Positions 4,851-48,541 of a stretch of 53,394 nt of DNA are shown here, one piece after another. The notes beneath the pieces are model-generated. The model saw nothing but the letters and a program-made list of their open reading frames with translations. It was not told the DNA's origin and did not search any database. Numbering within the stretch: position 1 is the stretch's first letter; each line of letters opens with the position of its first letter. The position numbers were made by a program, and so were the translations under genes. The stretch comes from an uncultured bacterium (GTDB taxonomy: Bacteria; Electryoneota; Electryoneia; Electryoneales; Electryoneaceae), in the NCBI GenBank assembly GCA_964648415.1, contig CAZYOC010000001.1:1-53394 (forward strand), written 5' to 3'.

Positions 4851-4932
4851 AGCGTAGCACGGGCGTCCCGCCCGTGGGATGAAACCCGAGAGCCAGCTCT
4901 CTGGTCCGCATCTACAGAGTCAGACACAGATC

Positions 4933-4969: not shown

Positions 4970-5010
4970 GAGGCGCACGTGTGTCTGCTCCCCTCCGTTT
5001 TCTCCCCCGC

Positions 5011-15053: not shown

Positions 15054-15105
15054 CAATCAATCCATGAGGGAGCATTCCAGCCGGATTTGACTGGAGGACA
15101 GGATC

Positions 15106-18100
15106 ATGAGAACATTGAGATTGATTTGTGTGTTGCTGTTGCTGACGGGCACAGCCTGGTCGTTTTCAGATGACTTTGAAACCGACCTGTCGCAATGGAC
15201 CGGGGACTGGGTCCGCACCAACGAGGCGGCCTACTCCGGGACGTGGTGTATTACGGAAAGCCCGGGCGGCGATTACGGTAACCTGGAATACAAGACCATC
15301 GAAATGGTTTCGGGCGAGGATCTCGACCAGGCGATCCTGGGCAGTGAGCTCACCTTCTGGGCGCGGTACGAGACGGAAGAACACTTTGATTTCTGGTATG
15401 TGGATATCTCGTTGGACGGCGGCCTTACCTGGAACCAGGAAGCTGCGTTTCATGGGACCGCCCTGACGTGGACACAATACACCGTTGACCTGGAAGGCTA
15501 CATTGGCAACAATGACGTCCGGGCGCGGTTCCGGTTCGACAGCGACCAGGCTGTGGTGGAGAACGGGGTCTGGATCGATAACGTCGAGATCACCATTACG
15601 GTTGATGATGTCAGCCCGCCCCTGGTGTTGCATGATGCCGTCCCGGTCGATTCCGCCATCGACGGTCAATATGACCCCGTCTTCACCGTCCGTGACCGAA
15701 GCGGCGTAGACTACGTCAACCTCTATTACAGGGTCAACGACAGCGACACCCTCCAGGCTCAGTTCGACTACCTCAACAACGACGATTACCATTTCGATAT
15801 TCCGCCCTACACACCGGGGTATCGTGTTACCTACTGGATAGAAGCCGGCGATAGCTGGACACCACAGAACGAGGACAGTTATGGTCCCTGGGAGTACTAT
15901 TGCGGGACCATGATCAGTTACGACAATGGCGTCAACGACGACGACATCATTGTCAACCAGGGGGCCGGCGGGCGGTTCGCCGTGGAATTCACCGACCCGG
16001 GCGACCCGGATCTCTACCTGGCGGCGGTGCTGTACGGGTTCTACCGCGATCCCGGCCGCACCATCGACAGTGTGGACTGTATTGTTTGGGACGACAACGC
16101 GGGCTGGCCGGGTAACCAGGTCATCGGAGAAATCCCCGTCTATCCGGAAAACACGCTGGCGACGCCGTACGCGGTGACACGGGTTGACATGGTTCCCTAC
16201 GACTATGAAATCAACGGGGACTTCCATGCCGGGTTCGAATACCGCTCCAATCGGCCCTACATCCTGGGCGACAACCCGGCGACACAGAACCGGTCCGAGC
16301 AGTACGACGGGGGCTGGTCCAACCTCAACCGCGATTTGCATATCCGGGCGCTGACCGGCGATATCTACGCCTATCTGCCCAACAACCCGACCGCGTTCCA
16401 ACTCGAGGAACCGGCCGACGAGGACACATCCGATACTGAAAACGTGACAGTCCGGTGGACTCAATCCACTGACAGCGACCCCAACGACTACATCCGGTAC
16501 GACCTGGAATGGTCGGTCAACTCCGACTTCTCGGCATCAAGTACTGTCACTATCACCGATACGTTCTACACCATCACCGGCCTGTCGGACAACACGACCT
16601 ATTACTGGCGGGTGAAATCCCGGGACGCGTTCCACAACGAAGAGTGGGCGGACCCGGGCGATACCGGCTACCAGTTTCATGTGTACACGCCGGAAAACCC
16701 CAACGTGTTCAACCTGACCAGCCCGGCCAATGCGTCGGTCTCCACCACCAGCGATGTGGTGTTGACCTGGGAGGCGGCTACGGACCCCGACCCGGACGAC
16801 GTGCTTACCTACGATGTCTATGTCAGCACCGATGCCGGAAATCTGGGGACGCCGGTGGCGACGGGCCTTTCCGCCACGACCTATACGTTCAGCGGCAACG
16901 ACGACACTCAGTACTGGTGGACGGTGCGGGCGGTGGACAACCACGGCCTCGAGACCCAGGCGATCCAGACCTGGCGCTTCAGCCTGGACATTGAAGATGC
17001 GCCCAATCCGTTTGATCTGGCCTCGCCGGCGGATGGTACCGTCTCGACGTCCACAGCGGTCACCCTTACCTGGAACGCCGCTACCGACCCGGACGGCGAC
17101 GCGCTGGTATATGACGTGTATGTCAGCACCGACGCCGGCAACCTGGGAACGCCCGTGGTCACCGGGATGACTCTGCTCAGCTACACTTTCAACGGGGTGG
17201 ATGACGAGACCTATTACTGGAGTGTGCGTGCGCGCGATCCGAGCAACAACTCCACCATGGCGAACCAGACCTGGAGTTTCTCCATTGAGGTGGAGGATCC
17301 GCCAGGGACGTTTGACCTGGCGTCACCCGCTAACGGGGCAGTTGAAACCGCCGCTACCGTAAACCTGACCTGGGACGCCTCGGTCGATCCCGACGGGGAT
17401 GCGGTGACGTATGACGTGTATGTCAGCACCAACGCCGGCAACCTGGGAACGCCCGACGCGACCGATCTGACGGTCACCAACTTTGCCTTCCCGGGCATTG
17501 ACGACCAGACCTATTACTGGACTGTGGTCGCCAAGGACCCCAACGGCAACGAGACCGACGCCAACCAGACCTGGTCTTTTTCCATCAACATCGGGCAGGC
17601 GCCTGACGCGTTCAGCCTGAGTTCACCAGCCGACGGGTATACGTCGGCATCGGCAACCGTGTCCCTCGCCTGGGACGCCACCACCGACCCCGATCCGGGG
17701 GATGATGTTACCTATTCGGTCTATGTCAGCACCAACGCCGGCAATCTCGGCGCGCCGGTGGCGACGGGCCTGACTGCGACGACCTACGACTTTACCGGCG
17801 TCAACAACAATACTTATTACTGGACCGTGAGGGCGGTGGATACCGACGGCCACAGTACGCAGGCGGACCAGACCTGGTCGTTTGATATCAGTGTCAACGC
17901 CGCGCCCCTGGCGTTCAACCTGACCAGTCCGGCCGACGGCAATACTGAAACCGCCACGGCAGTCGACCTTGATTGGGAGACGACTACCGATCCCGATGGC
18001 GACCCGTTGACGTACGATGTGTATGTCAGCCTGGACGCTTTTGACCTGGGAACGCCGGTGGCGACGGATCTCGGCGCCTCCAGCTACACCTACAACGGGA

Positions 18101-36100: not shown

Positions 36101-39100
36101 CGGACCAGACCTGGAGCTTCAGCATCGACGCTGCGCAGGCCAACCAGCCGCCGCTGGCGTTCGACCTGACCAGCCCGGCCGACGGCTATCAGTCGCCCAT
36201 GAACAGCGTGGATCTTGCCTGGCAGACCACCACCGACCCGGAAGGCGACCCGGTGAGCTACGATGTCTACATCAGCACCGTGCAGGGCTTCCCGGGCACT
36301 CGCTTCGCGGCGAACCTGACGAATACGAACTACACCTTTGACGGCGTCAACGGCGAGACCTACTACTGGACCGTGATCGCCGCCGATGAGAGCAACAACG
36401 AAACCCAGTCGACCACGACCCGCAGCTTCAGCATCAACACGGATGTGGCCGGCGATCCGCCGGTGGCGTTCGATCTGGCCTCGCCCGACAGCGGGTATGT
36501 GTCGGTGGAGACCGATGTTGACCTGACCTGGAACGCAACGAGCGATCCCGACGGCGGCGCCGTGACCTACGATGTCTACGTGAGCGATGACCCGGCCTAC
36601 CTGGGTGTGCAAGTTGCGCAGAACCTGAGCGGCACATCATACATGCACACCGGCGCGGACGGCGATACGCTGTACTGGACCGTGCGGGCGTACGACGAAG
36701 ATGGTATGTGGACCCAGGCGAGTCAGACCTGGTCCTTCAGCATTGATAGCGACCTGCCCGGCAGCGCCCCGGCGGCGTTTGATCTGGCGGCTCCCGACAA
36801 CAACACTGTCTCCCCGGTGGAGACAGTCACGCTGAGCTGGAACGCGACCAGCGATCCCGACGGCGGCGACGTGACCTACGAGGTCTTCGTCTCCACGCAG
36901 CTCGGTTTCCTCGGTACGCGGCTGGCCTCCAACCTGGGCGCAACCAGCTACGAGTTCGCCGGCAGCGACGGCGACCAGTACTGGTGGACCATCCGCGCGG
37001 TGGACGAGGACGGCATGTGGACGCAGGCGAACCAGACCTGGACCTTCAGCATCGACGCTACGCAGGCCAGTCAGCCGCCGTTGGCGTTCAACCTGGCCGG
37101 TCCCGACAGCGGGTATACTTCGCCGGATACGGATGTTCTGTTGAGTTGGTTCGATTCAGCCGATCCCGACGGCGAAGATGTGGAATATGATGTCTACGTC
37201 TCAACCGTACAGGGCTTCCTGGGCACACGTGTGGCCGGCGATCTCGCGGCTGCCAGCTACACCTATACCGGCAGCGACGGTGAAACCTACTGGTGGACCG
37301 TGCTGGCGGTGGACGGGGACGGCATGCAGACCCAGGCGAACCAGACCTGGAGCTTCTCGGTTGATACCAGCGTTCCGGGCAACGCGCCCAACGCGTTCAG
37401 TCTGGACAGCCCCATCGACGGCAGCGTGGAAACCAGCACGGCGGTGGACCTGGCCTGGGATGCGACCACCGATCCCGACGGCGACGATGTCACCTACGAT
37501 GTTTACGTCAGCCAGGTGCTTGGCTTCCCGGGAACCCGGATCGCGGCCAATCTGACCGATTTGACGACGACCTTCAACGGCCAGGACGGCGAAACCTACT
37601 ACTGGATGGTCTACGCCAAGGATCCCGACGGTCACCAGACGCAGGCAAACCAGACCTGGAGCTTCAGCATCGACGCGGAGCAGGTGGGCGAAGCGCCGCT
37701 GGCGTTTGACCTCGCCGCACCCGATAGCGGATTTGTCGCGCCGGAGACGATGGTGGACTTGAGCTGGAACGCCACCACCGATCCCGACGGCGATGACGTC
37801 AGCTACGCGGTGTATGTCTCCACCACGCAAGGCGTGTTCGGAGCGCCCCTCGCCAGCGGTTTAACGGCGACGTCCTATTCCTTCACCGGGACCAACGGCC
37901 AGGCCTACTGGTGGAAGATCATCGCGTCCGACACCAACAACAACGATACCGAGTCGACTCAGAGCTGGAGCTTCTCCATCGACACCAGCGTACCGGGAAC
38001 CCCGCCGCTGGCGTTCGAGCTGACCGGCCCGGACAGCGGGATGACCTTCGGGCAGGAAGAGGTCAGCCTGAGCTGGCAGACCACGACCGACCCGGACGGC
38101 GGCGCGGTGGGCTACGATGTCTACGTGTCCACGGTCCAGGGCGAACTGGGTACGCGTGTCGCGAGCGACCTGGGCGGCGCAGGCTACGAGTTCGCCGGAA
38201 CCGACGGCGAAACGTATCACTGGACCGTGCGGGCGGTGGATGAAGACGGCATGTGGACGCAGGCCGACCAGACCTGGAGCTTCAGCATCGACATCGCGGT
38301 TCCGGGCGACGCGCCGGGCGCGTTCGACCTGGCCACGCCAGCCGACGGCAGCACCGAGGGAGGCGTGGACGTGGACCTGACGTGGAACGCCTCCACCGAC
38401 CCCGACGGCGACGATGTGACCTACGAGGTCTACGTCAGCGAGATCGAGGGCTTCCTCGGCCAGCGAGTGGCGTCGGATCTGACCGTCACCACCTGGACCT
38501 TCACCGGCGTGGATAACGGCGAGTACTGGTGGACCGTGCACGCGTCTGATCCAAGCGGCCACGTGACCGCCGCCAACCAGACCTGGGGCTTCGACATCTT
38601 CGTGCAGGAGCCGCCGTTGCCCTTCAGTCTGGTATCCCCCGACAGCGGCTACCAGTCCGCCGATACGCTGGTCACGCTGAGTTGGCAGACCACCAGCGAT
38701 CCCGACGGCGATGACGTGCTGTACGATGTCTACGTCAGCGGTGACCCCGGCGACCTGGGCGACGCGGTGGTGACCGACCTCGCGGGGACGTCGTACGAAT
38801 ACGACGCTGAACGCGACACCACGTTGTACTGGACAGTGTTCGCCAACGACGGCGCGGGCAACGAGACCCAGGCGAGTGAGACCTGGAGCTTCAGCATTGA
38901 CGCGGAAGCGGTGGGCAATCCGCCGGCCGCCTTCAGCCTCGCCGCGCCCGACAGCGGTTCCCTGTCGCCGTATACCGACGTGGACTTGAGCTGGTTCGAG
39001 TCGACCGATCCCGACGGCGACGCGGTGACCTACGATGTCTACATCAGCACGGTGGAAGGCTTCCTGGGGCAGCGTGTGGCGCAGGATCTGACCGTCACCT

Positions 39101-42100
39101 CATACACATACACCGGCGTTGAGGGCGAAACCTACTGGTGGACCATCAAGGCGGTGGATGTCAACGGCAACCAGACGCAATCGACCGAAACCTGGTCGTT
39201 TGAGATTGATACGGACGTGCCGGGCTTCCCGCCGGTGGCGTTCGGACTGACCGGCCCCGACAGCGGGTATGTGTCGGCGGTGGAAGATGTGCTGCTGAGC
39301 TGGGCCGCCTCGAGCGATCCGGAAGGCGGCGCGGTGACGTATGATGTGTATGTGAGCACCGACCCGGCGGACCTGGGAACGCGTGTCGCGCAGGACCTGA
39401 CCGGAACGTCGTACGAGTTCACCGGCAGCGACGCGCAGACCTACTACTGGACCGTGCGCGCGATGGATGTGGACGGGCTCTGGACGCAGGCAGACGAGAG
39501 CTGGTCCTTCAGCATTGATACGACGGTTCCGGGCGACGCGCCGGACGCCTTCAGCCTGCTGACCCCGGCGGACAACTTCCAGTCCGCCACGCTCGACGTG
39601 GCGATGACCTGGGAAGCGAGCAGCGATCCTGACGGCGGCGCGGTGACCTATGACGTCTACGTCAGCACCGACCCGCTCTTCCAGGGTACGCGTGTCGCGT
39701 CCGACCTGGCCGGAACGTCGTACCTCTACACCGGCGTGAACGGGCAAGAGTATTACTGGACCGTGCGCGCGGTGGACGAGGACGGCATGTGGACCGAGTC
39801 GAGCGAGACCTGGAGCTTCTCCATCAATACCGGCACGGTTCCGCCTCAGAATGAAGCGCCGCTGGCCTTCGATCTGGCCGGACCCGACAGCGGGTACGTC
39901 TCACTGATCACCGATGTGGACCTGAGCTGGTTCGAGGCGGTGGACCCGGACGGTGATGAAGTCAGCTACGATGTCTATATCTCACCGGTCGAAGGCTTCC
40001 TTGGCGAGTTGGTTGCAGAAGATCTGGAAGGCGCATCCTATAGCTTTGCAGGAACAGATGGTGAGCTGTACTGGTGGACGGTGATCGCGACCGACGAGAA
40101 CGGCCTCTGGACACAAGCGACTCAGCAGTGGAGCTTCAGTGTCGAGGAGACGGTAATCGGCAGCGAACCCAACGCCTTCAGCCTGGTCAGCCCGGCAGAC
40201 GGGGTAACCTTGAACGATCTCGCCGTCACCCTGCAGTGGAACTCGACCACCGACCCGGACGGCGACGATGTGACCTACGAAGTCTACGCCTCGACAGTGG
40301 ACGGCTTCCTGGGCACACGTCTCGCGGCGGGCCTGACCATCACGTCCTACGACCTGACCGCCAGCGATGACACCCAGTACTGGTGGACCATCCGCGCGGT
40401 GGACGAGGACGGCAACTGGACCCAGGCCAACGAGACCTGGACATTCAGCATCTTCGTGGAAGACCCACCGGGACCGTTTACCCTGGCCGCGCCGGACTCC
40501 GGCGACACCGTACGCACCACCACGGCGGAGCTGAGCTGGTTCGAGTCGGTGGACCCGGACGGCGACGAGGTGACCTACAGCCTGTACGTCAGCACCGACC
40601 CGGCCAACATGGGCGCAGCGGTGACGACGGACCATGCGCCGACCTCGTATGCTTACGATGGGACCGACGGGGAAACCTACTGGTGGACCGTAACCGCAAC
40701 GGACGAGAACGCCAACTCCACGGCGGCGACCGATACCTTCAGCTTCACCATCGACGCCACCGTGATCGGCAACCCGCCGGAAGCCTTCAGCCTGGCGGCG
40801 CCGGACAGCGGCGATGTGTTGCCGTATACCCAGATCGACCTGAGCTGGTTCGAGTCGTTCGATCAGGATGGGCAGGATGTCACCTATTCGGTGTACGTGT
40901 CCACGGTGGAAGGCTACCTGGGCACCCGGATGGCGGCCAACCTGACCGTGACTTCCTATACCTTCACCGGCCAGGACGGCGAAACGTACTGGTGGACGGT
41001 GCGGGCGGTGGATGAGGACGGCAACGTCACCCAGGCCGACGAGACCTGGAGTGTCAGCATCGACCTGTCCAACTTCAACGAACCGCCAACGCCCGTCGTG
41101 CTGGCCTCGCCGCAGGACGGCTCGCTGGTCGGCTTCGAAGAAGTGGACCTGACCTGGTTCTCTTCCACCGATCCCGACGGCGGCGATGTTCTTTACGATG
41201 TCTACGTGTCGCTGACCGAGGACAACCTGGGGACACGCTACGGCGAGAACCTGGCCGACACCCTGTACACCTTTGACGGTGTCGACGAGGTGACTTACTA
41301 CTGGACCGTGGTCGCCAGGGACGAGGACCACAACCAGACGAGCAGCGAAAACTGGGACTTCACAATCCATACGGCCGGCGTACCGAGCCCGTTCGCGCTG
41401 CTGTCGCCCGACGACGACGCGCATATCGACGACGACACGGTGACTGTGGCCTGGAGCGAATCTGTCGACCCGGACAATGGCGACCCGATCACGTACCACC
41501 TGGAAGTCTCCACCGATGCCCAGTTCCAGCCGTATGTCACCTATACCACAGCGGATCTGCAATACACCATCGCCAACTTTATGGGCCTCGCCGCGCGGAT
41601 CAACGGTATGAAGGATGAGCAACCGCAGCCGCGCGAGGATGGGCGTGTGGACTTCCGTCCCAGCGGTTCCTTCGGCAGTGTGCGTGTCAGTGGCTTGGGC
41701 GTCGCGTCGCCGGGCGGCGGCGACGAGCTGGATGAACTGCCGGACGACCTGACGCTGTACTGGCGGGTGCGGGCCTACGACAACGACAACCTGTATACCT
41801 ACGGCGATCCGGGCGAAAGCGGCCGCAGCTTCACCACCGACCAGGTGGAAGCGCCGGAAGCGTTCAGCCTGCTGAGCCCGTCCGAAGGCGACACCGTGTG
41901 GTCTTCCGAGACCCTGATGAGCTGGGAAGCCGCCACTGACCCGGACCCGTACGATACGCCTCACTACGATATCTGGCTGGATGACAGCAGCGACATGAGC
42001 GGCGCGTCGCTGGCAGCCGACAGCATCGCCGCCGACAGCTTCACCATGACCGGCCTGCTGGACGACCAGACCTACTGGTGGACGGTCCGCGCGACCGACA

Positions 42101-44400
42101 GCAACACCGAGGGAACCTGGGCGCAGGATACCCTGTCGATGCACGTGTACATCGTGGAGCCGCCCGACGCCTTCACCATGGCGTATCCGGGCGACGGCGA
42201 CACGGTGGACGCGGAAGAGGTGACGGTAACCTGGAACCGGGCAAGCGATCCCGACCCGGGCGACGCGGTGAGCTACGAGATCCAGTGGTCGGCGGATGCG
42301 GACTTCAGCACCGTCAACACCGGCACAACCAGTGACACGTTCTTCACCATCAGCGACCTGAGCGAGCTGATGGTCGCCTCGCAGCCTTGCGCTGACGGGG
42401 AGATCACGCTGCGCGGCGGCATGGAGCTGTTGCGTGACAGCCGTCGAGGCGGCAGTGTGGAGCTTGGTAGCGGACGCAGTCGCGGGCCGGTGGCGGAGCT
42501 GAACGAGCAGCCGAGCGAGGGTGCGACCGGCTTCTCCTCCAGGCAGCGCGAAAAAATCGGACGGACGGAGCGCAGCCGCGGCAAGGGCCGCGCCGCACTG
42601 AACAGCCTGACAGAAGAACGCGGCACAAATCTCGCACCTCACCGCCGTGGCAGCGGCCCGACCGGCGTTACGGGGCTGGATCAGCGTGTCGGCGGCACGG
42701 GCGAGCTGGACGAGCTGCCGGACAACAGCACCATCTACTGGCGGGTGCGGGCGATCGACAGCTTCGACAGCACCACCTGGGCGGACGGCGACAGCACCGG
42801 CCGAGCGTTTGACGTCATCCGCGCCGATGCGCCGAGCACCTTCAGCCTGCTGACCCCGCAGAACGGCAGCAGCCTGGATCAGAGCACGGCCACGCTGAGC
42901 TGGCAGACCTCGAACGATCCCGATCTGGACGGCGCCGTGCCCAGCTACCGTGTCTGGTGGGCCACCGATCCGCAGTTTGACAACGTCGATTCGGCGGACG
43001 TAAACGATACCGAACTGAACCTGGACAACCTGACCGACGACACCGTGTACTGGTGGAAAGTCCGCGCACTGGACGACAACACCGAGGGCACCATGTCGCG
43101 CCAGGTCTGGGCGTTCCAGGTCTTCATCCCCGAGCGGCCGACAGCGTTCAGCTTGCGGCAGCCGGCGAACAACGGTGTCGCCACCGAAGACAGCGTCACC
43201 CTGACCTGGACCCGCGCCAGTGATCCCGACCCGGGCGACAGCCTGCAGTATCGTGTCGAATACTCGACCGACAGCGCGTTCCCGGCCGGAGATACCGAGG
43301 TCGCCACGGTCCGCGACACCTTCCTGCTGATCAGCGGGCTGGAAGCGGACTACGACGACCGGACGCTCTACTGGCGGGTGCAGGCGGAAGACCTGTTCGG
43401 CATGACACGGTACGGCGAGCCGGGCGAGAATGGCCGCCAGTTTGACGTGCGCATCGCTCATCCGCCGCTGCCCTTCGAGCTGGTCAGTCCGTCGGCCAAG
43501 TCCATTATTGCGGACACCGTGGTCTCCTTTAGCTGGGAGAGCAGCAGTGATCCCGACATGGAAGACACGCTGCGGTACGAGCTGTGGGTCAGCACAACCA
43601 ACGACTTTGATGAGGACAACACCACGGTGTATCCGGACATCGCCAACGCGCAGTATGTGTTGACCGGCTTGCTGGACGACCGCGTGTACCACTGGAAAGT
43701 CAAGGCGGTGGACAGCAACACGGACGGTACCTGGTCCACCGATCAGGGCTCGTTCCAGACGTCTCGTCCCGAACCGCCGACCCCGTTCGACCTGGTGCGC
43801 GTCATGGACGGCGACACGTTGAACGCCGACGAGATCCGCAACCTGCTGTTCGAGTGGAAAGCGTCGCACGATCCCGATCCGGGTCAGGAGGTGAAGTACC
43901 TGCTGGTTCTCGACGAGGAGCAGGATTCCAGCGCGACAGAAGAAGCGATTCATCTGGAGCTGACCGTCCGCGAAGCGCCGTCGTTCGTCGTACCGGTGCG
44001 CAGCGAGCTGGAAGACACGTTCTGGGACGAGATGCTGCACTTCACTTGGTACGTGAAGGCGGTTTCGGGCGCGGATACGGTGGAGAGCGGCAGCCGGTTC
44101 AGCTTCCACGTGGCACCGAACCAGAAGGATGTCCCGACCACCTTCAGCATGGGCGCGCCTTATCCGAACCCGTGCAATCCGACCACGCAAGTGAAGGTCG
44201 GCTTGCCGAGCTCGGCGCATGTGCGCATTGAAGTCTTTGACATGCTGGGCCGGCGGGTGGACATCATTACCAGCCGGCAGTACGCCGCCGGTTATCACCA
44301 GTTCTTCTGGACGGCGGAAGGCGCGTCCGGGACGTACATCATGCGGGTGACGACATCCGCCGGCTGGTCGGACATTCGGAAGATTGTATTCTTGAAATAG
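15106..44400 (+). CDS. giant (9,764 aa) cell-surface protein: signal peptide, beta-sandwich head, 89 FN3-like modules, T9SS C-terminal sorting domain
   Basis: A single ORF with no stop for 29,295 nt. GGAGGA at 15093-15098 lies 7 nt before the ATG. Signal peptide MRTLRLICVLLLLTGTAWS. Repeating module: P.AF.L.SP..G......V.L.W....DPDGD.VTYDVYVS...G.LG..VA..L..T.Y.F.G.D..TYYWTV.A.D..GN.T...QTWSF. The C-terminus is YPNPCNPTTQVKVGLPSSAHVRIEVFDMLGRRV...GTYIMRV...IRKIVFLK. Confidence 0.92.
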   Translation: MRTLRLICVLLLLTGTAWSFSDDFETDLSQWTGDWVRTNEAAYSGTWCITESPGGDYGNLEYKTIEMVSGEDLDQAILGSELTFWARYETEEHFDFWYVDISLDGGLTWNQEAAFHGTALTWTQYTVDLEGYIGNNDVRARFRFDSDQAVVENGVWIDNVEITITVDDVSPPLVLHDAVPVDSAIDGQYDPVFTVRDRSGVDYVNLYYRVNDSDTLQAQFDYLNNDDYHFDIPPYTPGYRVTYWIEAGDSWTPQNEDSYGPWEYYCGTMISYDNGVNDDDIIVNQGAGGRFAVEFTDPGDPDLYLAAVLYGFYRDPGRTIDSVDCIVWDDNAGWPGNQVIGEIPVYPENTLATPYAVTRVDMVPYDYEINGDFHAGFEYRSNRPYILGDNPATQNRSEQYDGGWSNLNRDLHIRALTGDIYAYLPNNPTAFQLEEPADEDTSDTENVTVRWTQSTDSDPNDYIRYDLEWSVNSDFSASSTVTITDTFYTITGLSDNTTYYWRVKSRDAFHNEEWADPGDTGYQFHVYTPENPNVFNLTSPANASVSTTSDVVLTWEAATDPDPDDVLTYDVYVSTDAGNLGTPVATGLSATTYTFSGNDDTQYWWTVRAVDNHGLETQAIQTWRFSLDIEDAPNPFDLASPADGTVSTSTAVTLTWNAATDPDGDALVYDVYVSTDAGNLGTPVVTGMTLLSYTFNGVDDETYYWSVRARDPSNNSTMANQTWSFSIEVEDPPGTFDLASPANGAVETAATVNLTWDASVDPDGDAVTYDVYVSTNAGNLGTPDATDLTVTNFAFPGIDDQTYYWTVVAKDPNGNETDANQTWSFSINIGQAPDAFSLSSPADGYTSASATVSLAWDATTDPDPGDDVTYSVYVSTNAGNLGAPVATGLTATTYDFTGVNNNTYYWTVRAVDTDGHSTQADQTWSFDISVNAAPLAFNLTSPADGNTETATAVDLDWETTTDPDGDPLTYDVYVSLDAFDLGTPVATDLGASSYTYNGTNGNTYYWTVRAKDDNGNETSANQTWSFDISVNDPPTAFSLASPADATTSSTASVTLTWDASTDPEGGPITYNLYVSTDAGDLGTPVASGLTGTSNTFNGSDDTQYYWTVRAYDSAGNMTQADQTWSFDVYVEESPAAFNLAAPGDGSTMGATAVNLSWDASTDPDGDAVTYDVYVSTDAGNLGTPVATDLAGTSYTYNGTDLTTYYWTVYARDPNGNQTQAIETWSFDIDVDYAPDAFNLLTPADGTVSSTVAVPLTWESTTDADGETITYDVYVSTDAGNLGTPVATDLSATSYTFNGADNTTYYWTIRAKDGANETQANQTWSFSTDEEFAPDPFNLTSPSDFHIFNSTTTIALDWEATTDPDGDPVTYDVYVSTTQGDLGTLVADDIAVSNYDFSGSDGEEYWWTVFAFDDNGNSTQSNQTWKFSIFIQEVPGAFDLLDPTNGETVYTLDVPLSWEASVDPDPGDNVVYDVYVGTQIWNLGQVATGVTGTSYTYTGIDGNTYYWTVDARDAVGNTTTASQTWSFTIDYEPPPAAFNLTSPADGTVSGTNSVDLDWETTTDPDGGAITYDVYVSTDPGNMGAAVATGLNTTSYTFNGSDDTQYYWTVHALDPDGGETTANQTWGFSIYVEEAPGAFDLSSPADAATEPAATVSLAWDASVDPDGDAVTYDVYVSTDAGNLGTPVATDLSATTYDFTGSDNTTYYWTIQAKDPNGNATDANQTWSFDIFVDDPPDAFSLASPADGSTQGAATVSLTWNAATDPEGLAVTYDVYVSTDAGNLETPVTTDLAATTYDYTGSDNTTYYWTVHAKDPAGNETPASETRSFDIYVEEAPGAFDLTGPADGSTQTSLTVTMTWDASTDPDGDDVTYDVYASTDAGDVFSNQVASDLTAATYDFTGSDNTTYYWSVRAKDPNGNETDANQTWSFDIVYDDPPDAFSLDSPADASTSPTATVSLAWNSTTDPEGQDVTYDVYVSTDMGTLFDAPVESDLSVLTYDFAGLDDSTYYWTVRAKDENGNERQASETWTFDIYVEEAPDAFNLLSVADGTTSNTLTVDLAWESTSDPDGDNITYDVYVSTDAGDLGTPVAADLNVTIYTFTGLDDSTYYWTVFAKDPNGNETQATQTWSFDIYVEEAPDAFSLTSPADVSTQTSTTVTLTWNASADPDGDAVTYDVYVSTDAGNLGAPVATDLTVLTYDHTGSDDVTYYWTVVAKDPNGNETQASETWSFEIYIEEAPGAFDLASPADGTTSSTATVTLTWNASTDPDGDAVVYDVYVSTDAGDLGTPVATDLGALTWDFTGLDDSTYYWTVHAKDGNGNDVAANQTWSFDIYVEEAPDAFSLASPADASTQTSTTVTLAWNATTDPDGDAVTYDVYVSTDAGNLGTPVATDLTVLTYDHTGSDDQTYYWTVVAKDPNGNETPASETRSFDIYIEEAPQAFDLSSPADSYVSPVTNVALTWDATTDPDGDAVTYDVYVSTDAGNLGTPVATDLSALTYNYTGSDDQTYYWTVVAKDPNGNETSAASTWSFDIYIEEAPGAFDLASPADGSVQGATTVTLTWNTSTDPDGDAVTYDVYVSTDAGNVFGSPVATDLNATTYDFTGSDNQTYFWSVRAKDPNGSVTTANQTWDFEIYVEEAPGAFSLTSPADGSTLGAITATLEWGASVDPDGDAVTYDVYVSTDLGTLFDAPVATDLTVRSYDHTGSDNTTYHWAIIAKDPNGNETQSTQTWSFDIYVEEAPVAFDLTSPADATVSSTTTVTLNWNSTIDPDGDAVTYDVYVSTDAGNLGAPVATDLVASSYDYTGSDDQTYYWTVRAKDPNGNETQANQTWSFSIYVEEAPNAFSLTSPADATVSPAVDVTLNWNSTTDPDGDPVTYDLYVSTDAGNLGTPIASDITVTTYDFTGTDDETYYWTVVAKDGNGNETQATQTWSFSIYVEEAPNTFSLAGPASGTVSGAVDVALSWNSTTDPDGDAVTYDVYVSTDAGNMGTPVASDLTTTNYTFTGSDNTQYWWTVRAKDPNGNETQASQTWSFSIYVEEAPNPFTLANPPDGSTHESENVTVTWNLTTDPDGDPIYYDIYISTDPGDMGTPVVDSLPGPSYTYTGNDLTTYYWTVVAYDDNGNETQANQTWSFFIDIEHEPGEFDLAGPNSGWISPSATVTLEWETSVDPDGDPVTYDVFLGPTAGSLTETVSDLTDTTYEFTGNDDSQYWWTVQASDDNANEVWADNTWNFSIYVEEAPGAFSLSSPADGHTAPDTLVALSWTASVDPDGDPVSYDVYVSTDPGDLGMPVASDVTGTTYTFDGEDDTQYYWTVTAKDNNSNSTPVGETRSFSIYREEAPQPFTLVSPANGAVMGTSTVTLTWNTTTDPDGDAVTYDVYVSTDAGTLFDTPTATDLTSATYDFSGSDDTRYHWGVVAKDPNGNETQSTNTRYFDIYVEEAPGAFTLTSPANGQVMGATSVSLQWSASVDPDGDPVVYDVYVSTDAGDLGTPVAGGISATQWTFNGSDDVTYYWSVTARDNHSNSTPVGETRSFSIYVEESPLAFNLTSPANGTISGSATVTLNWAATSDPDGDDVTYDVYVSTDAGNMGTPVASDLTVNNYIFNGNDDTRYYWTVRAKDPNGNETQANQTWWFETYVEEAPSTFSLVSPDSGNVMGATAVTLQWNASTDPDGDPVRYDVYVSTDAGNLGTPVATNLTGTSYTYNGSDDTQYWWTVRARDNNGNATNASETWSFDIYVEEPPSAFSLVNPADGTVSPTTAVDLSWNTSTDPDGDDVTYDVYVSTDAGNLGTPVASDLTTTSYTFNGSDDTSYYWTVRAKDPNGNETQATQTWQFEIYVEEGPDAFSLSSPADGTVSGSATVSLVWNTTTDPDGDAVTYDVYAGTDAGDLLSSPVATDLTVANYDFTGLDDSTYTWTVIAKDPNGNETQASETWTFSIYVEEPPPAFSLLTPTDASTEPATDVELTWEPAPDPDGDDVTYDVFVSLDPGDLGTAVATGLTTTSHTFSGDDDSTYTWTVRANDTNGNSTDATETWTFDIHVEEAPLAFNMISPADGAVSPNAAVTLQWQNTTDPDGDTVVFDVYVSHDAGDLGTPVATDLSTTSYTYTGDDDSTYYWSVFARDGNGSETQASNGIWEFSIYVEEAPGAFSLLSPVNGAIRSTATVNLQWTASVDPDGDAVTYDIFVSTDPGNMGTPVQTGVTATSWTFNGNDDTQYWWTVRANDPNGNQTMATNTRTFSIYVEEAPEPFSLLSPADGTVSGTDEVTLIWENTIEPDGDPVEYDLYVSTDLNNLGTPIADNITDTTYSFTGSDDQTYYWTVVAYDDQNNDTPADQTWSFEIYIEEPPSAFALATPDSGIVSPDTVVTLTWDRSTDPDGDALTYDVYVSTDMNNLGTPVAENLTDTSYTFTGDDDTQYWWTVEVDDGNGNVVQADQTWSFDIDVEDVPDTFTLLSPADGSTSPTATVDLTWQSTSDLDSDPITYDLYVSTDLNNLGAPVQTGLTDTTASFTGSDDTAYWWTVIADDGNGNTVAATDTFGFDIYVEEYPNAFALLSPDSGHVSPGTDVTLIWTSTSDPDGDAVSYDLFISTDMNNLGAAVATDLTDTSYAFTGNDDTEYWWTVVAGDVNGNETAAPDTFSFSIYVEEGPGAFTLATPADGSVEPDTDVLLIWDTSTDPDGDAVTYDLYLANDVGGLATPYQTGLTDTFYTFTGTDNTSRLWTVVAGDPNGNTTAAADTFSFDIYVEEPPAAFDLVAPDSGWTSPWLDVDLSWDYSSDPDGDVLFYDVYVSTDQGNPGAPVMTDLTDSTWTFAAVHGNTYWWTVEVDDGNGNVVQASQTWSFEVDTSLAGQAPLAFDLASPDSGATIATEDVLLTWFPTTDPNGDDIVYDVYVHQAQGQLLTTPVATDLTNTSYTYTGVHDTPYWWTIIARDPIGNQTQANQTWRFHVHTANPGNAPGAFSLTGPDSGWVSPSTDVLLSWEESIDADGDDVLYDVFVSQTAGVIGTRVASNLNGTSYIHSGGNGDTLYWTVQAKDPSGNYTQANETWSYSIDVSGADQPPTAFGLAGPSDGSVQPVTDVLLSWEPSSDPEGMDVSYEVYASTVQGFLGSRVASDLTGLSYTFTGSNNETYYWTIIAYDEAGNSTQSDETWSFAVDTSQQNNAPAAFSLVSPDSGWTSPSADVLLSWESTTDPDGDNVTYDVYLSTSSSDIGTRVAANLTGTSYTHTGADGDTLFWTVRAVDTYGNQTQSSETWSFDIDLGNANQPPAAFTLASPSDGYVSPSTDVLMTWETSSDPEGGAVTYDVYVSTVPGFLGTRVAHDLSGASHTFTGSDATSYYWTVIAADADGNTTQSDVTWAFEIDLTQANNPPNAFSLAAPDSGWTSPSTDVLLSWENATDPDGDNVTYDVYISSTSSDIGTRVASGLTGTSYSHSGSDGDTLFWTVRAVDDNNNQTQSTESWSFDIDLGNANQPPAAFTLASPSDGYVSPATDVLMTWEASSDPEGGAVTYDVYVSTIAGFPGTRVAHDVSGTSHTYSGSDGETYYWTVIASDADGNTTQSDVTRSFEIDLTQANNAPEAFSLVAPDSGWTSPSTDVLLSWESATDPDGDAVTYDLYISTTSADIGTRIANGLTGTSYSYTGSDGDTLFWTIRAVDAFGNQTQSTESWSFDIDLGNANQPPAAFTLASPSDGYVSPATDVLMTWQGTTDPEGGAVTYDVYVSTTPGFLGTRVANDLNATNYTFTGSDAATYYWTVIAADASGNTTQSTDTWSFEIDLGNADSAPTAFSLVAPDSGWTSPNTDVLLSWQASSDPDGGDVTYDLYTSATSADIGTRIASGLTGTSYSYSASDGDTLFWTIRAVDAGNNQTQSTQSWSFTIDISVANDPPAAFTLVSPADGFVSPATDVLLTWNTTTDPEGAGVTYDVYASTTPGFLGTRIADNLAGTSYTFTGSDGETYYWTVIASDPSGNFTQADETWSFEIDTPVSNNAPNAFSLTAPDSGWASPSADVVLSWEETTDPDGEEVSYEVYISTVQGFIGTRVASGLTGATYIHTGVTGETYFWTVRAVDPNGDATQSTETWAFSIDTDNANDPPVAFTLVSPLNGHVSPSPDVLLTWNGATDPEGGDVEYDVYVSTVPGFLGARVAAGLSGTSYSYTGVDGETYYWTVVAEDVDGNRTQADETWSFSIDESQATTPPTAFSLTSPADGFASTNSLVIMTWNESTDPDGGNVSYDVYLSTVDGFIGVRMATGLSLPTYAFNGTPGETYWWTVRAVDDSGEETQSNETRSFSIDNTVTGQPPAAFSLTAPDSGHVSPVETVTLSWDVTTDPDGDAVTYDVYVSDDPVDLGTADVTGLAGTSWDFTGTDGETYYWTVRASDGNGNDTQAGETWSFSIDASLPGDPPNAFDLASPADGSTEFYQDVQLVWNSTDDPDGDAVTYDVYVSDVDGFLGSRIAQDLTDTTATFTGVDGTQYWWTVQAVDATGRSTQANQTWSFTIDVNYPVESFSLLAPDSGYVSGNEDVLLSWEHAVDPEGEDVTYDVYVSTDPGDLGTPVADDLAGASYSFTGTDGQTYWWTVEAWDGDVAVTPADQTWSFSIDTGTVPPGNDPPNAFSLAGPDSGFVSPVTDVLLSWEASADPDGDAVTYDVYLSLSESFLGSRIASGLTETNYTCSSSDGDQWYWTIVASDEYDATTQSSETWSFSIDTGAVPPDNDPPNSFTLASPDSGFISPEQDVLLTWNQAIDPDGDAVTYEVYVSMVQGDLGTRVAANLTGTSYSYTGTDGALHWWTVRALDSNNQATFADQTWRFGVNTGSTPPGNDPPNAFSLASPSDGFVSPVTDVLLTWNQATDPDGDDVTYEVYLSADPAFVGTRMASGLTGTSWNFSGTDDEEWYWTIRALDTEDQSRLSTETWSFSIDTGTVPPGNDPPNSFALVAPDSGHVSPDFSVNLSWETAVDPDDDEVTYDVFVSSVQGELGARVAAELTGTSFEYTGIDGQQYWWTVKAYDSNNLLTDADQTWSFSIDAAQANQPPLAFDLTSPADGYQSPMNSVDLAWQTTTDPEGDPVSYDVYISTVQGFPGTRFAANLTNTNYTFDGVNGETYYWTVIAADESNNETQSTTTRSFSINTDVAGDPPVAFDLASPDSGYVSVETDVDLTWNATSDPDGGAVTYDVYVSDDPAYLGVQVAQNLSGTSYMHTGADGDTLYWTVRAYDEDGMWTQASQTWSFSIDSDLPGSAPAAFDLAAPDNNTVSPVETVTLSWNATSDPDGGDVTYEVFVSTQLGFLGTRLASNLGATSYEFAGSDGDQYWWTIRAVDEDGMWTQANQTWTFSIDATQASQPPLAFNLAGPDSGYTSPDTDVLLSWFDSADPDGEDVEYDVYVSTVQGFLGTRVAGDLAAASYTYTGSDGETYWWTVLAVDGDGMQTQANQTWSFSVDTSVPGNAPNAFSLDSPIDGSVETSTAVDLAWDATTDPDGDDVTYDVYVSQVLGFPGTRIAANLTDLTTTFNGQDGETYYWMVYAKDPDGHQTQANQTWSFSIDAEQVGEAPLAFDLAAPDSGFVAPETMVDLSWNATTDPDGDDVSYAVYVSTTQGVFGAPLASGLTATSYSFTGTNGQAYWWKIIASDTNNNDTESTQSWSFSIDTSVPGTPPLAFELTGPDSGMTFGQEEVSLSWQTTTDPDGGAVGYDVYVSTVQGELGTRVASDLGGAGYEFAGTDGETYHWTVRAVDEDGMWTQADQTWSFSIDIAVPGDAPGAFDLATPADGSTEGGVDVDLTWNASTDPDGDDVTYEVYVSEIEGFLGQRVASDLTVTTWTFTGVDNGEYWWTVHASDPSGHVTAANQTWGFDIFVQEPPLPFSLVSPDSGYQSADTLVTLSWQTTSDPDGDDVLYDVYVSGDPGDLGDAVVTDLAGTSYEYDAERDTTLYWTVFANDGAGNETQASETWSFSIDAEAVGNPPAAFSLAAPDSGSLSPYTDVDLSWFESTDPDGDAVTYDVYISTVEGFLGQRVAQDLTVTSYTYTGVEGETYWWTIKAVDVNGNQTQSTETWSFEIDTDVPGFPPVAFGLTGPDSGYVSAVEDVLLSWAASSDPEGGAVTYDVYVSTDPADLGTRVAQDLTGTSYEFTGSDAQTYYWTVRAMDVDGLWTQADESWSFSIDTTVPGDAPDAFSLLTPADNFQSATLDVAMTWEASSDPDGGAVTYDVYVSTDPLFQGTRVASDLAGTSYLYTGVNGQEYYWTVRAVDEDGMWTESSETWSFSINTGTVPPQNEAPLAFDLAGPDSGYVSLITDVDLSWFEAVDPDGDEVSYDVYISPVEGFLGELVAEDLEGASYSFAGTDGELYWWTVIATDENGLWTQATQQWSFSVEETVIGSEPNAFSLVSPADGVTLNDLAVTLQWNSTTDPDGDDVTYEVYASTVDGFLGTRLAAGLTITSYDLTASDDTQYWWTIRAVDEDGNWTQANETWTFSIFVEDPPGPFTLAAPDSGDTVRTTTAELSWFESVDPDGDEVTYSLYVSTDPANMGAAVTTDHAPTSYAYDGTDGETYWWTVTATDENANSTAATDTFSFTIDATVIGNPPEAFSLAAPDSGDVLPYTQIDLSWFESFDQDGQDVTYSVYVSTVEGYLGTRMAANLTVTSYTFTGQDGETYWWTVRAVDEDGNVTQADETWSVSIDLSNFNEPPTPVVLASPQDGSLVGFEEVDLTWFSSTDPDGGDVLYDVYVSLTEDNLGTRYGENLADTLYTFDGVDEVTYYWTVVARDEDHNQTSSENWDFTIHTAGVPSPFALLSPDDDAHIDDDTVTVAWSESVDPDNGDPITYHLEVSTDAQFQPYVTYTTADLQYTIANFMGLAARINGMKDEQPQPREDGRVDFRPSGSFGSVRVSGLGVASPGGGDELDELPDDLTLYWRVRAYDNDNLYTYGDPGESGRSFTTDQVEAPEAFSLLSPSEGDTVWSSETLMSWEAATDPDPYDTPHYDIWLDDSSDMSGASLAADSIAADSFTMTGLLDDQTYWWTVRATDSNTEGTWAQDTLSMHVYIVEPPDAFTMAYPGDGDTVDAEEVTVTWNRASDPDPGDAVSYEIQWSADADFSTVNTGTTSDTFFTISDLSELMVASQPCADGEITLRGGMELLRDSRRGGSVELGSGRSRGPVAELNEQPSEGATGFSSRQREKIGRTERSRGKGRAALNSLTEERGTNLAPHRRGSGPTGVTGLDQRVGGTGELDELPDNSTIYWRVRAIDSFDSTTWADGDSTGRAFDVIRADAPSTFSLLTPQNGSSLDQSTATLSWQTSNDPDLDGAVPSYRVWWATDPQFDNVDSADVNDTELNLDNLTDDTVYWWKVRALDDNTEGTMSRQVWAFQVFIPERPTAFSLRQPANNGVATEDSVTLTWTRASDPDPGDSLQYRVEYSTDSAFPAGDTEVATVRDTFLLISGLEADYDDRTLYWRVQAEDLFGMTRYGEPGENGRQFDVRIAHPPLPFELVSPSAKSIIADTVVSFSWESSSDPDMEDTLRYELWVSTTNDFDEDNTTVYPDIANAQYVLTGLLDDRVYHWKVKAVDSNTDGTWSTDQGSFQTSRPEPPTPFDLVRVMDGDTLNADEIRNLLFEWKASHDPDPGQEVKYLLVLDEEQDSSATEEAIHLELTVREAPSFVVPVRSELEDTFWDEMLHFTWYVKAVSGADTVESGSRFSFHVAPNQKDVPTTFSMGAPYPNPCNPTTQVKVGLPSSAHVRIEVFDMLGRRVDIITSRQYAAGYHQFFWTAEGASGTYIMRVTTSAGWSDIRKIVFLK
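15163..16380 (+). other. N-terminal non-repeat head of the giant protein (jelly-roll MAM/LamG-like domain plus further beta-sandwich regions)
   Basis: FSDDFETDLSQWTGDW...YSGTWCITESPGG...TFWARYETEEHFDFWYVDISLDGGLTWN...RARFRFDSDQAVVENGVWIDNVEI has the pattern of MAM/choice-of-anchor-type beta-sandwich domains. This call is by eye only. Confidence 0.5.
16696..29319 (+). repeat. type A FN3-like module array: 42 modules of ~300 nt (100 aa), linker ..SF.IYVEE
   Basis: Counted module by module from the translation: 12,624 nt / 42 = 300.6 nt per unit. Confidence 0.85.
29320..41382 (+). repeat. type B FN3-like module array: 39 modules of ~309 nt (103-106 aa), longer linker ..SFSID(x6-9)
   Basis: Counted from the translation: 12,063 nt / 39 = 309.3 nt per unit. 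SPDSG(W/Y/F)xSP and GFLGTR variants distinguish it from type A. Confidence 0.85.
41383..44130 (+). repeat. type C divergent FN3-like modules (7), two carrying large Arg/Gly-rich insertions
   Basis: These modules keep the L.W....DPD and (L/V)YW(R/K)V.A.D landmarks but are much more diverged. They resemble module 1 (16384-16695) at the other end of the array. Confidence 0.7.
44131..44397 (+). other. T9SS C-terminal sorting domain of the giant protein
   Basis: VPTTFSMGAPYPNPCNPTTQVKVGLPSSAHVRIEVFDMLGRRVDIITSRQYAAGYHQFFWTAEGASGTYIMRVTTSAGWSDIRKIVFLK aligns by eye with the CTDs of the CDSs at 5011, 11423 and 50309. Confidence 0.8.
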
Positions 44401-44473
44401 AAGGGACAGCGGTGCCACGGCTTGATTCCGTGGCAGGGCAGTCGTGGCGCCGTCAACGTCCCGGGGAGGACAC

Positions 44474-45619
44474 GTGAAACACGTGCTCAAAACACTTCTT
44501 TTGCTGGGCCTGCTGCTTGGTGCGAGCGCAGCGCCCGCTCAACAGTCTTTCGTGATCGACGTGGTCACCGAAGGCGCCGGCATCTCGCCGCCGGTCAGCG
44601 AGCTGCTCATCGAGGACCCGTTCCCGATGTTCAGCCTGCTTGATCTGCACATGCTGGAACGCTACGACAGGGACTACTTCGGCATGTGGGACCGGGCGGA
44701 GGGCTATCTGCTCAGCGTACACTCGAATACCGTGGCCACCATGTCGCGTTCCTACAGCGCCTGGCAGTTCCCGGCCTACCTGTTCTACAAGGACTGGGTG
44801 TTCGGGCTCACGCTGCCGTTGGTGGAGGGACGCCGGTTCTCATATCGCGGCGACCGGCAGGGAGCGTCCGGGTTCGGCGACATCGCCATGACGCTGGGGT
44901 ACTCCTACCCGTTGCCGGTGGACATCAGCTATGCGGCGGCCATGACCATCAAGTTTCCGACAGCCAACAGCGGAGCCTACCGCAGCCGCTTGAACACGCC
45001 ACTGGGCACCGGCGCGCCGGACCTGATTTTCAGCATCAACCTGCAGCATACCATGACCTTCGGCGATGTACAGGTGCTGGGGCAGTGGAGGGGCAACGGG
45101 GACCGGACCTACGAGCTGATCGCCCATGACCCCAACGACCCCACGCATATCGTGGAGACAGAATACGATGTGCGCAACGGCAACGCCCTGCTGGTGAAAG
45201 CCCTGTACAACCACCGCTTCATCGGGCTGAACTTCTTTGATTACGTGGACCTGGATTTCGACGCTTACAGCGGTCTGCACCTGAAGCACCTCTACGCCGC
45301 CGGGTATACCGAGTGGACCAAACATGACAACCAGACCGGCGGGTTCTCGTCGAGTTTCCCCGGACACCCCTCGCTTACCACGCTGGAGTGGTTCATAGGC
45401 GCCAACTACTTCTACGCTCCCTTCACCGGGCGCGCGCAGCTTGTGCTGCCGCTGGGTGTCAACCACGGCGGCCGAACCGCCGAAAACTACCGAGATGTGG
45501 AGTTTCGCCTGGGCCTCACCTGGTTCTGGGCGATGGATATGAGCCCGCGTCAACTGAGGAACCACCAGTTGAGAGAGCGGATCAAGGAACGTCAATATCG
45601 TGAACGGTCACGCCGCTAA
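44474..45619 (+). CDS. outer-membrane beta-barrel protein (MetA-pathway/transporter-like family resemblance)
   Basis: GGAGGA at 44465-44470. The GTG 44474 start (or 44483/44444) gives the signal peptide (V)KHVLKTLLLLGLLLGASAAPAQQ. GFGD and PTANSG...LGTGAPD motifs and strand-like periodicity are present. The last strand is LGLTWFW, followed by a basic tail. Only 16 nt separate it from the next gene. Confidence 0.7.
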   Translation: MKHVLKTLLLLGLLLGASAAPAQQSFVIDVVTEGAGISPPVSELLIEDPFPMFSLLDLHMLERYDRDYFGMWDRAEGYLLSVHSNTVATMSRSYSAWQFPAYLFYKDWVFGLTLPLVEGRRFSYRGDRQGASGFGDIAMTLGYSYPLPVDISYAAAMTIKFPTANSGAYRSRLNTPLGTGAPDLIFSINLQHTMTFGDVQVLGQWRGNGDRTYELIAHDPNDPTHIVETEYDVRNGNALLVKALYNHRFIGLNFFDYVDLDFDAYSGLHLKHLYAAGYTEWTKHDNQTGGFSSSFPGHPSLTTLEWFIGANYFYAPFTGRAQLVLPLGVNHGGRTAENYRDVEFRLGLTWFWAMDMSPRQLRNHQLRERIKERQYRERSRR

Positions 45620-48013: not shown

Positions 48014-48042
48014 AGTAATTCTCGAATGAAATGTCCCATGAT

Positions 48043-48070
48043 GTCATTCCTGCGAAAGCAGGAATCCAGA
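48043..48070. repeat. REP-like hairpin family 1, second copy
   Basis: Same 27-nt sequence as 3408-3434. It translates to the VIPAKAGIQ artefact at the start of ORF 48031. Confidence 0.85.
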
Positions 48071-48312
48071 ATAAACAAGTACTTAAGAATCTTGGTATGT
48101 TCGATTCTTTGCAAGAACCACTCTATGTTGTCAGGCAAGGGTTTACGTGGACCGACAGGGTAAAAAGATTAGGGGAGTTTAAGCTTTCGCTCGGCGGTTT
48201 TCCGGGTTGTAGTTTTCCGTACATTGTGGGGCAAACAAGCGGGGCGTGCAGTCCAGAAGTCATGGCTGACGTACCCCCTACCAACAACCAACGAGAGTTC
48301 TCGGAGGATACG

Positions 48313-48519: not shown

Positions 48520-48541
48520 GCCTGAGCAGAACGATTGTATG

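Follow-up and report, generated by a model that had tools for sequence, protein, structure and literature searches.

RTX (repeats-in-toxin) adhesins project a ligand-binding region on a long extender of Ig-like repeats of ~100 aa, which is very acidic and stiffened by Ca2+. They are exported by a type I secretion system (T1SS), carry an RTX/T1SS signal at their C-terminus, are anchored in the outer membrane by their N-terminus and are built of bacterial Ig-like (BIg) repeats. [quoted passage not shown] Type A cargo of the T9SS is described for Porphyromonas as covalently linked to anionic lipopolysaccharide (A-LPS) (PMC9143113), and the system is possibly present in several phyla of the FCB group other than Bacteroidota (PMC11285876). 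As for size, Ebh of Staphylococcus aureus is a rod-like tandem-repeat protein of ~1.1 MDa and over 41,000 of the proteins in UniProtKB exceed 5,000 aa (PMC11573180), while reports exist of bacterial proteins of ~25,000 aa (10.1101/2023.11.21.568195). Here we describe a gene located at 15106..44400 (+) in a window of 53,394 nucleotides (the whole stretch analyzed, contig CAZYOC010000001.1 of assembly GCA_964648415.1). This gene, hereafter the giant gene, is real and intact, and encodes a T9SS cargo protein of extreme length with a binding-type head, 89 modules resembling fibronectin type III (FN3) domains and a C-terminal T9SS tag. By its sequence, the product belongs both to type A cargo of the T9SS and to the FN3 superfamily. 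The source organism is a member of Candidatus Electryoneota (FCB group), its Ffh being 93% identical to that of the 5.45-Mb assembly ERZ21862645 (ctg38566l) and 77% identical to that of Candidatus Electryonea clarkiae.

An intact gene for a giant protein

Translation of the giant gene gives one frame that opens with ATG, runs through 9,764 codons and meets its sole stop at its end, in a window without any N. A Shine-Dalgarno sequence, GGAGGA, can be read 7 nt 5' of the start codon (15093-15098, +). The predicted protein of 9,764 aa has a mass of 1,052 kDa and a pI of ~4.05, with 16% D+E and 2.3% K+R. Chance origin of the frame is excluded by its 9,764 stop-free codons together with purifying selection between the closest module pairs (see below). 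Open reading frames (ORFs) antisense to the gene, of up to 1,502 aa, were dismissed as shadow ORFs, for which a family search gave nothing significant. The first-pass annotation, made from the letters alone, had proposed an uninterrupted ORF, a good Shine-Dalgarno sequence and a product of ~1 MDa, larger than SprB, and all four proposals agree with these values.

A tandem array of FN3 modules

We segmented the protein with a hidden Markov model (HMM) built from seven modules, and obtained 89 modules in total: one divergent module (aa 434-537), 81 core modules (aa 538-8765) and seven divergent C-terminal modules (aa 8766-9685). The first one (16405..16716, +), at the junction between head and array, is FN3-like and scores 34.5 bits against the module HMM. 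The first half of the core array (16717..29340, +) comprises 42 FN3 modules of 99-102 aa, which share the acidic linker IYVEEAP.AF.L and a mean pairwise identity of 58%. The second half (29341..41400, +) comprises 39 FN3 modules with a longer, Pro-rich linker, the module length shifting to mostly 103-106 aa from aa 4746 on. Duplication has a period of two modules (618 nt) in the block at aa 5159-5880, and pairwise protein identity across all core modules averages 52% (range 34-89%).

The FN3 assignment is supported by several lines of evidence. Three landmark motifs recur throughout the protein, namely YDVYVS (43 occurrences), Y[YW]W[TS][VI] (62) and TW.F (61). Two of the C-terminal modules (41401..44160, +, for all seven) match Pfam fn3 (PF00041) with 61.6 and 37.7 bits (cutoff 25). 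In the Pfam scan, core modules exceed the cutoffs of SusE (73.6 bits), Ig_Rha78A_N (64.8), Big_9 (38.9) and fn3_4 (31.9), PF00041 itself not being matched above its cutoff. An AlphaFold2 model of a module pair, computed from an alignment of 80 sliding module pairs, reaches a predicted local distance difference test (pLDDT) of 97.4 and a predicted template modeling score (pTM) of 0.77, and shows an all-beta strand pattern recurring once per module. The top PDB matches of this model in Foldseek are titin A77-A78 (3lpw), the FN3 tandems of neogenin, DCC and LAR, and the Fn3 of Clostridium thermocellum CbhA; the module sequence profile matches the FnIII domain of chitinase A1 (1k85). Finally, W18, Y31, Y34 and W67 of the module are invariant or nearly so, in keeping with the strand-B Trp and the strand-F Tyr corner of FN3 domains. 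Predicted fold and profiles together make the FN3 assignment solid.

Two further features of the modules are of interest for the architecture of the protein. In the module alignment, the BC-loop motif TDPDGD is nearly invariant and the first Asp of the FG loop is invariant; both map to the N-terminal pole of the FN3 domain, at its junction with the preceding module. In addition, strands E and F are separated by an insert in two of the seven C-terminal modules. The first insert, of 56 aa (aa 8826-8881; 41581..41748, +), ends in ELDELPDD. The second one, of 121 aa (aa 9087-9207; 42364..42726, +), is an Arg/Lys-rich low-complexity segment ending in ELDELPDN, and forms the sole basic patch of the protein, which is otherwise very acidic. 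Basic inserts so near the C-terminal domain (CTD) might touch the anionic cell surface or serve as hinges.

Signal peptide and head

The first 19 residues, MRTLRLICVLLLLTGTAWS (15106..15162, +), look like a Sec signal with the usual succession of n-, h- and c-regions and cleavage before FSDDFE. The call was made by inspection and from an alignment of homologs, as FSDDFE, the start of the mature protein, is invariant across the 19-20 homologs of the head. The AlphaFold2 model of the head places a helix at residues 2-12, within this peptide.

The head itself (aa 20-433) was modeled as three beta-sandwich domains with a pLDDT of 83, from an input of 20 homologs. Domain 1 (aa 20-166; 15163..15603, +) is a MAM-like or CBM-like jelly-roll with a pLDDT of mostly 83-96. 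Its sequence match to Pfam InhA-like_MAM (PF20773) is borderline (26.9 bits, exactly the cutoff of 26.9), and the profile of the head family matches InhA2 (4yu5) in the PDB with 32 bits. Domain 2 (aa ~167-266; 15604..15903, +) is an Ig-like beta-sandwich with modeled strands at 173-266, in which P172, L173, H176, D197, S199 and G200 are conserved among homologs. Domain 3 (aa ~267-433; 15904..16404, +), delimited from both the model and the alignment, is a second jelly-roll beta-sandwich; its GFYRDPGRTID is a degenerate copy of the family motif RNYTD..RPND. Foldseek neighbors of the head are reelin subrepeats, the MAM-Ig region of RPTPmu, the MAM domain of meprin, InhA2, CBM16 and glycosidase accessory domains, and no catalytic fold was found among them. 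With MAM and CBM domains as neighbors and no catalytic fold, the head is a binding-type module rather than an enzyme.

The C-terminal sorting domain

The last 79 residues (aa 9686-9764; 44161..44397, +) were recognized as a T9SS type A CTD from both a profile match and sequence motifs. When the C-terminal 399 aa were scanned with NCBIfam, TIGR04183 matched the last 76 residues (321-396 of the 399) with 34.8 bits (cutoff 23), and TIGR04131, the model for type B CTDs, was not matched. The C-terminus reads YPNPCNPTT...SGTYIMRV...IRKIVFLK and also contains FDMLGRRV. The latter resembles the M-N-G-R-R-V of RgpB, a glycine motif in the beta3-beta4 loop, and the terminal IRKIVFLK contains Lys; a glycine motif in this loop and a Lys-containing C-terminal motif both matter in P. 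gingivalis (PMC11285876). Three further genes of the window match TIGR04183 and have bodies without any other Pfam domain. They lie at 5011-8316 (-; 1,101 aa), 11423-12412 (-; 329 aa) and 50309-52984 (-; 891 aa), and three such genes in 53 kb suggest that this genome makes heavy use of the T9SS.

From N- to C-terminus, the architecture is thus the one anticipated by the first-pass annotation, which had listed a Sec signal peptide, a ~400-aa beta-sandwich head, 89 modules (the HMM count is identical) with FN3-like landmarks, and a T9SS sorting domain. The FN3 fold and the sorting domain, which it had left to profile searches and structure prediction, are both borne out.

Relatives and expansion of the array

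Word-indexed searches, in which heads of 32-37% identity were the nearest found, had suggested that the giant protein has no close relative. This conclusion had to be rejected, as they missed a protein whose head is 53% identical and which was recovered by an exhaustive profile search, conducted with a two-module profile against 1.84 billion representative proteins. The best match of this search, P0043 (3,952 aa; JANQEY010000306.1 in GCA_028278125.1), carries ~30 modules and is, on sequence grounds, an ortholog of the giant protein. The head identity of 53% extends over 433 aa, the C-terminal module regions are 40% identical over 936 aligned positions and the CTDs are 38% identical. Module 1 is conserved in P0043, and so are both E/F inserts (the ELDELPDD motif and an equivalent basic insert). 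A homologous gene with an FGE domain also lies directly downstream of P0043, as it does near the giant gene (see below). A general link between head genes and FGE genes was rejected, however, with an FGE gene nearby in only two of 84 loci (L081, that of P0043, and L043). Similarly, hyp189 was rejected as a conserved upstream partner of the giant gene, since no similarity could be detected between it and the 190-aa gene that precedes P0043. A third relative, found in a metagenome scan, has only 818 aa, with a head 42% identical to that of the giant protein, one FN3 domain and a CTD ending in IRKVVLVK.

The contig of P0043 (L081) also encodes, at 1-8483 (-) and in divergent orientation, a second large T9SS protein, P0045 (4,635 aa), in which an LVIVD beta-propeller head is followed by an FN3 array and a CTD. 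Related organisms therefore seem to own several proteins of the head-on-FN3-stalk type, with different heads.

Comparison of the two arrays shows how the giant protein reached its length. All 81 core modules have their best match within the giant protein rather than in any P0043 module, and conversely 22 of 23 P0043 modules match their own protein best, which indicates that the arrays were expanded or homogenized independently in the two lineages. Among the module pairs of the giant gene, the 15 closest show a synonymous divergence (dS) of 0.36-1.5 and a ratio of nonsynonymous to synonymous divergence (dN/dS) of 0.08-0.45. The array of the giant protein thus grew within its own lineage and has been maintained by purifying selection.

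Both parts of the protein belong to large families. The module type was detected in 33,759 representatives at E<=1e-3 and in 2,506 at E<=1e-30. Top matches of the module profile are multi-module proteins of 2,000-7,712 aa, and among the top 150, at least 32 have a terminal CTD that is homologous to that of the giant protein. As for the head, its family (P0001-P0023) consists of T9SS cargo proteins of 530-900 aa that are 29-37% identical to the giant head and share 49 invariant columns as well as a type A CTD. A genome scan with two peptide patterns, neither of which matches the giant's own head, recovered members from 80 genomes belonging to Bacteroidota, Ignavibacteriota, Calditrichia and Cloacimonadota. 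One of the multi-module proteins, MDP8207914.1 (P0046; 3,962 aa) of Ca. Electryonea clarkiae, is labeled 'T9SS type A sorting domain-containing protein' at NCBI, so proteins of this class already carry annotations in public databases. The head-FN3-CTD architecture is common in FCB bacteria, and the giant protein is an unusually long member of a widespread, unstudied class. The statement of the first-pass annotation that no described family could be assigned consequently does not hold, given a T9SS type A cargo with a recognizable head family and a ~30-module ortholog.

An exact look-up of the giant protein and of hyp391, the product of the next gene, in a collection of 15 billion proteins returned nothing, while Ffh from the same contig is present. 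As the giant protein is itself missing from the collection, the lack of longer relatives there is weak evidence, and genes of this size can evidently be missing from large protein catalogues. More generally, very long repeat proteins appear to be under-represented in such catalogues, or hard to retrieve from them.

A proposed tethered stalk and its alternatives

We propose, with a probability of roughly two in three, that the giant protein acts as a T9SS-exported stalk of ~0.3-0.4 µm, anchored at its C-terminus and presenting a distal binding head. Surface anchoring, adhesion and the distal orientation of the head are inferred from type A cargo of Porphyromonas and Flavobacterium. By analogy, Sec would export the chain across the inner membrane, the CTD would guide its passage through the SprA/Sov translocon, a PorU-type sortase would cut off the CTD, and the new C-terminus would be joined to A-LPS. 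Such a C-terminal linkage would bring the seven divergent modules close to the cell, with the head at the distal end. FN3 domains are spaced by ~3.2-4.3 nm in fibronectin and titin, from which the proposed length follows for 89 modules. The stalk would keep a non-enzymatic head at a great distance from the cell, where it could attach to particles, polymers or other cells, and the number of modules would set its reach. The TDPDGD BC loop and the FG-loop Asp at module junctions may, more speculatively, bind Ca2+ and stiffen the rod.

Several points weigh against this proposal. The Ca2+ site that would stiffen the stalk is plausible from the conserved loops, but speculative. The head belongs to a family without a characterized member that would suggest a ligand. 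At the other end, the CTD falls narrowly below the cutoff of Pfam PF18962 (25.7 bits against 27), and none of sprA/sov, porU, porV and gldKLMN was found in the 53-kb window. To our knowledge, A-LPS attachment has been demonstrated in Bacteroidota only. The protein is known here from its gene sequence alone. Finally, no ortholog with the giant's head was found among the top matches in the closest relative (the one with 93% identity in Ffh), where synteny breaks near the locus; this absence and the break suggest that the giant gene is dispensable or variable.

Alternatively, the protein may be secreted by the T9SS but released after CTD removal, as an extracellular matrix, sheath or biofilm scaffold. 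Many type A cargo proteins of Flavobacterium and Cytophaga are released enzymes. A secreted chitinase is likewise listed among T9SS cargo (PMC9127263). Extreme acidity (pI ~4) and an array of 89 repeats would be fitting properties for a cation-bridged matrix polymer, and A-LPS anchoring, unproven beyond Bacteroidota, leaves room for release. However, a head at one end and a CTD at the other, kept at 1, 30 and 89 modules, better fit a tether, and the conserved basic inserts are confined to CTD-proximal modules, suggesting a specialized cell-proximal end. We thus regard release as unlikely, although it deserves to be kept in mind.

A second alternative is a mobile gliding adhesin like SprB, moved by the T9SS/gliding motor, which would agree with the giant size of a T9SS cargo (SprB itself having 669 kDa) and with the gene located two genes downstream, FGE792 (45635..48013, +). 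Its lipoprotein-like product of 792 aa has a C-terminal domain of the FGE-sulfatase fold, which is also the fold of GldK and GldJ, and the FGE-fold gene is conserved beside the ortholog. FGE792 scores 134 bits against PvdO, 92.4 bits against GldK (TIGR03525; cutoff 350) and 25 bits against GldJ (cutoff 458), all far below the cutoffs, and the GldK model covers only the C-terminal FGE-fold part; it was thus rejected as a PorK/GldK or GldJ protein. The gene directly 3' of the giant gene, hyp391 (44444..45619, +), encodes a protein of 391 aa with a signal peptide. It has no Pfam match at E<=1 and no PDB match and, unlike SprF, which relies on twin cysteines for its bond to GldK, contains no cysteine; it was therefore rejected as an SprF/PorP-like partner; hyp189 has no Pfam match at E<=1 either, which leaves no PorP/SprF-like neighbor. 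Furthermore, the CTD is of type A and not of type B as in SprB, the SprB repeat (PF13573) was not found in the regions scanned, and Ca. Electryonea metagenome-assembled genomes encode flagellar motility (PMC9324843). Taken together, these observations make a gliding adhesin improbable.

Thirdly, the length of the gene could be an assembly artefact, caused by wrong joining or inflation of the repeat array, or by the fusion of two FN3-array genes into a chimera. The contig is indeed metagenome-assembled, module subtype and GC content change near nt 29,340, and the exact protein is missing from the 15-billion-protein collection while Ffh of the same contig is present. The array is nevertheless poor in long exact repeats: the longest one within the gene has 47 nt, no 51-mer occurs twice, repeated 31-mers form only 24 runs, and DNA identity between modules is 60-87%. 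Such low identity and such short exact repeats, together with the dS and dN/dS values given above, indicate that the module duplications are old and that the copies are under purifying selection. The frame is also open across 29.3 kb, P0043 shows a collinear arrangement of head, C-terminal modules and CTD, and the subtype transition is gradual in identity, with one module family throughout. Collapse of the array during assembly is unlikely, and we consider an artefactual length very improbable. Divergent repeat arrays of this size can accordingly be assembled and trusted when long exact repeats are absent.

Lastly, a decaying or silent gene without functional product, to which knowledge from sequence alone and apparent dispensability in the closest relative could point, has a negligible probability given 9,764 codons without a stop, an intact Shine-Dalgarno sequence, signal peptide and CTD, and purifying selection on modules at saturated synonymous divergence, which argues against a pseudogene.

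Returning to the anchored stalk, a bolder version of it can be considered. Reach would be evolvable (the same head on 1, ~30 or 89 modules), the giant protein would be among the longest T9SS-anchored fibrils and a counterpart of RTX adhesins with reversed polarity, and it would be threaded through SprA domain by domain. This set of claims is tentative and, in our opinion, somewhat doubtful. If it were true, conserved basic hinge inserts would mark the cell-proximal end of a Ca2+-stiffened T9SS rod. A rod exceeding the width of the periplasm more than tenfold would furthermore call into question the notion that T9SS cargo is exported fully folded, and would imply domain-by-domain threading through SprA.

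Genomic neighborhood

The window is chromosomal, with ffh, rpsP and trmD followed by several genes for secreted proteins, and contains no tRNA or Rfam feature. Its strongly acidic products (pI ~4.1-4.4) are mostly predicted secreted proteins. A salt-in halophilic lifestyle was rejected as a cause of this acidity, since Ffh has a pI of 9.2 and two membrane transporters have pIs of 9.6-9.8.

Downstream of FGE792 lies an ORF for a ferredoxin-like protein with 2x[4Fe-4S] (48031-48519, +), followed by a terminator-like hairpin with a 15-bp stem (48541-48577, +), which a consensus scan returned as the first strong one 3' of the giant gene. The giant gene, hyp391, FGE792 and the ferredoxin-like ORF may possibly form an operon. 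A further gene (12948-13892, +), located ~1.2 kb upstream of the giant one, encodes a secreted protein of 314 aa with an SdrD B-like domain (of the Ca2+-binding adhesin type) and a Gly/Asn-rich C-terminal tail.

Comparison of the closest relative (L083, ERZ21862645 ctg38566l) with positions 1-10076 of the window reveals a common order, ffh-rpsP-...-trmD-...-T9SS cargo gene (1091 and 1101 aa, respectively). Past the synteny break, L083 carries a gene for UDP-glucose dehydrogenase and the window one for a Na/sulfate symporter. From this arrangement, the giant gene may sit in a variable region. The large FN3 protein of this relative, P0044 (5,222 aa), is encoded at another location and has a different head. 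The rpsP ORF of the window (1607-2530, +) encodes 307 aa, of which only aa 9-67 form the S16 domain; the remaining ~220 aa are highly charged tandem repeats rich in Lys, Glu, Ala and Asp, and the S16 protein of L083 has 193 aa.

Comparison with known systems

The paper describing the Electryoneota phylum mentions neither T9SS nor adhesins, the papers on Electryoneota that we searched do not discuss T9SS cargo, and a literature search returned no paper joining T9SS with FN3 and giant adhesins, nor one joining T9SS with AABM5-125-24. We likewise found no description of a T9SS substrate larger than the giant protein. If real and expressed, it would represent ~1.6 times the mass of SprB in a protein from a candidate phylum. 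The series of 1, ~30 and 89 modules could show how stalk length is selected, and how the T9SS copes with cargo whose length far exceeds the width of the periplasm.

The giant protein resembles SprB as a giant, repetitive, T9SS-exported surface protein that is presumed to be filamentous and adhesive. SprB itself, however, has a type B CTD (TIGR04131), SprB repeats (PF13573) and the partner SprF, whereas the giant protein combines FN3 modules with a CTD of type A, lacks an SprF-like neighbor and is heavier. With RTX adhesins it shares a very acidic beta-sandwich spacer projecting a binding region, but its polarity would be reversed, FN3 modules replace the BIg repeats, and a role of Ca2+ is here only speculative. 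RTX nonapeptide repeats and a T1SS signal are also absent, as Pfam scans of aa 8766-9764 returned fn3-type domains and the T9SS CTD only. The giant protein thus belongs to neither the SprB nor the RTX family, whose defining features were looked for and not found. Ebh is comparable in mass and also built of tandem repeats, but differs in repeat fold, secretion and anchoring, and titin, whose FN3 tandem is the top structural match, is intracellular and eukaryotic.

Closer resemblances are found among uncharacterized proteins. The members of the head family have the head joined to the CTD directly or via PKD- or SprB-type repeats, and lack an FN3 array. MDP8207914.1 and similar proteins of 2,000-7,700 aa share the FN3 module type and a homologous CTD (and, for MDP8207914.1, the phylum), but have different N-terminal heads, in which BLAST finds no match to the giant head, and are shorter, MDP8207914.1 having less than half the length. 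P0043 comes closest, with the same head, module family, insert-bearing C-terminal modules, CTD and FGE neighbor, but with ~30 modules instead of 89. Neither a new mechanism nor a new class of system is revealed by this comparison; what is unusual is the size of the giant protein for a T9SS cargo and a series of 1, 30 and 89 modules built on one and the same head.

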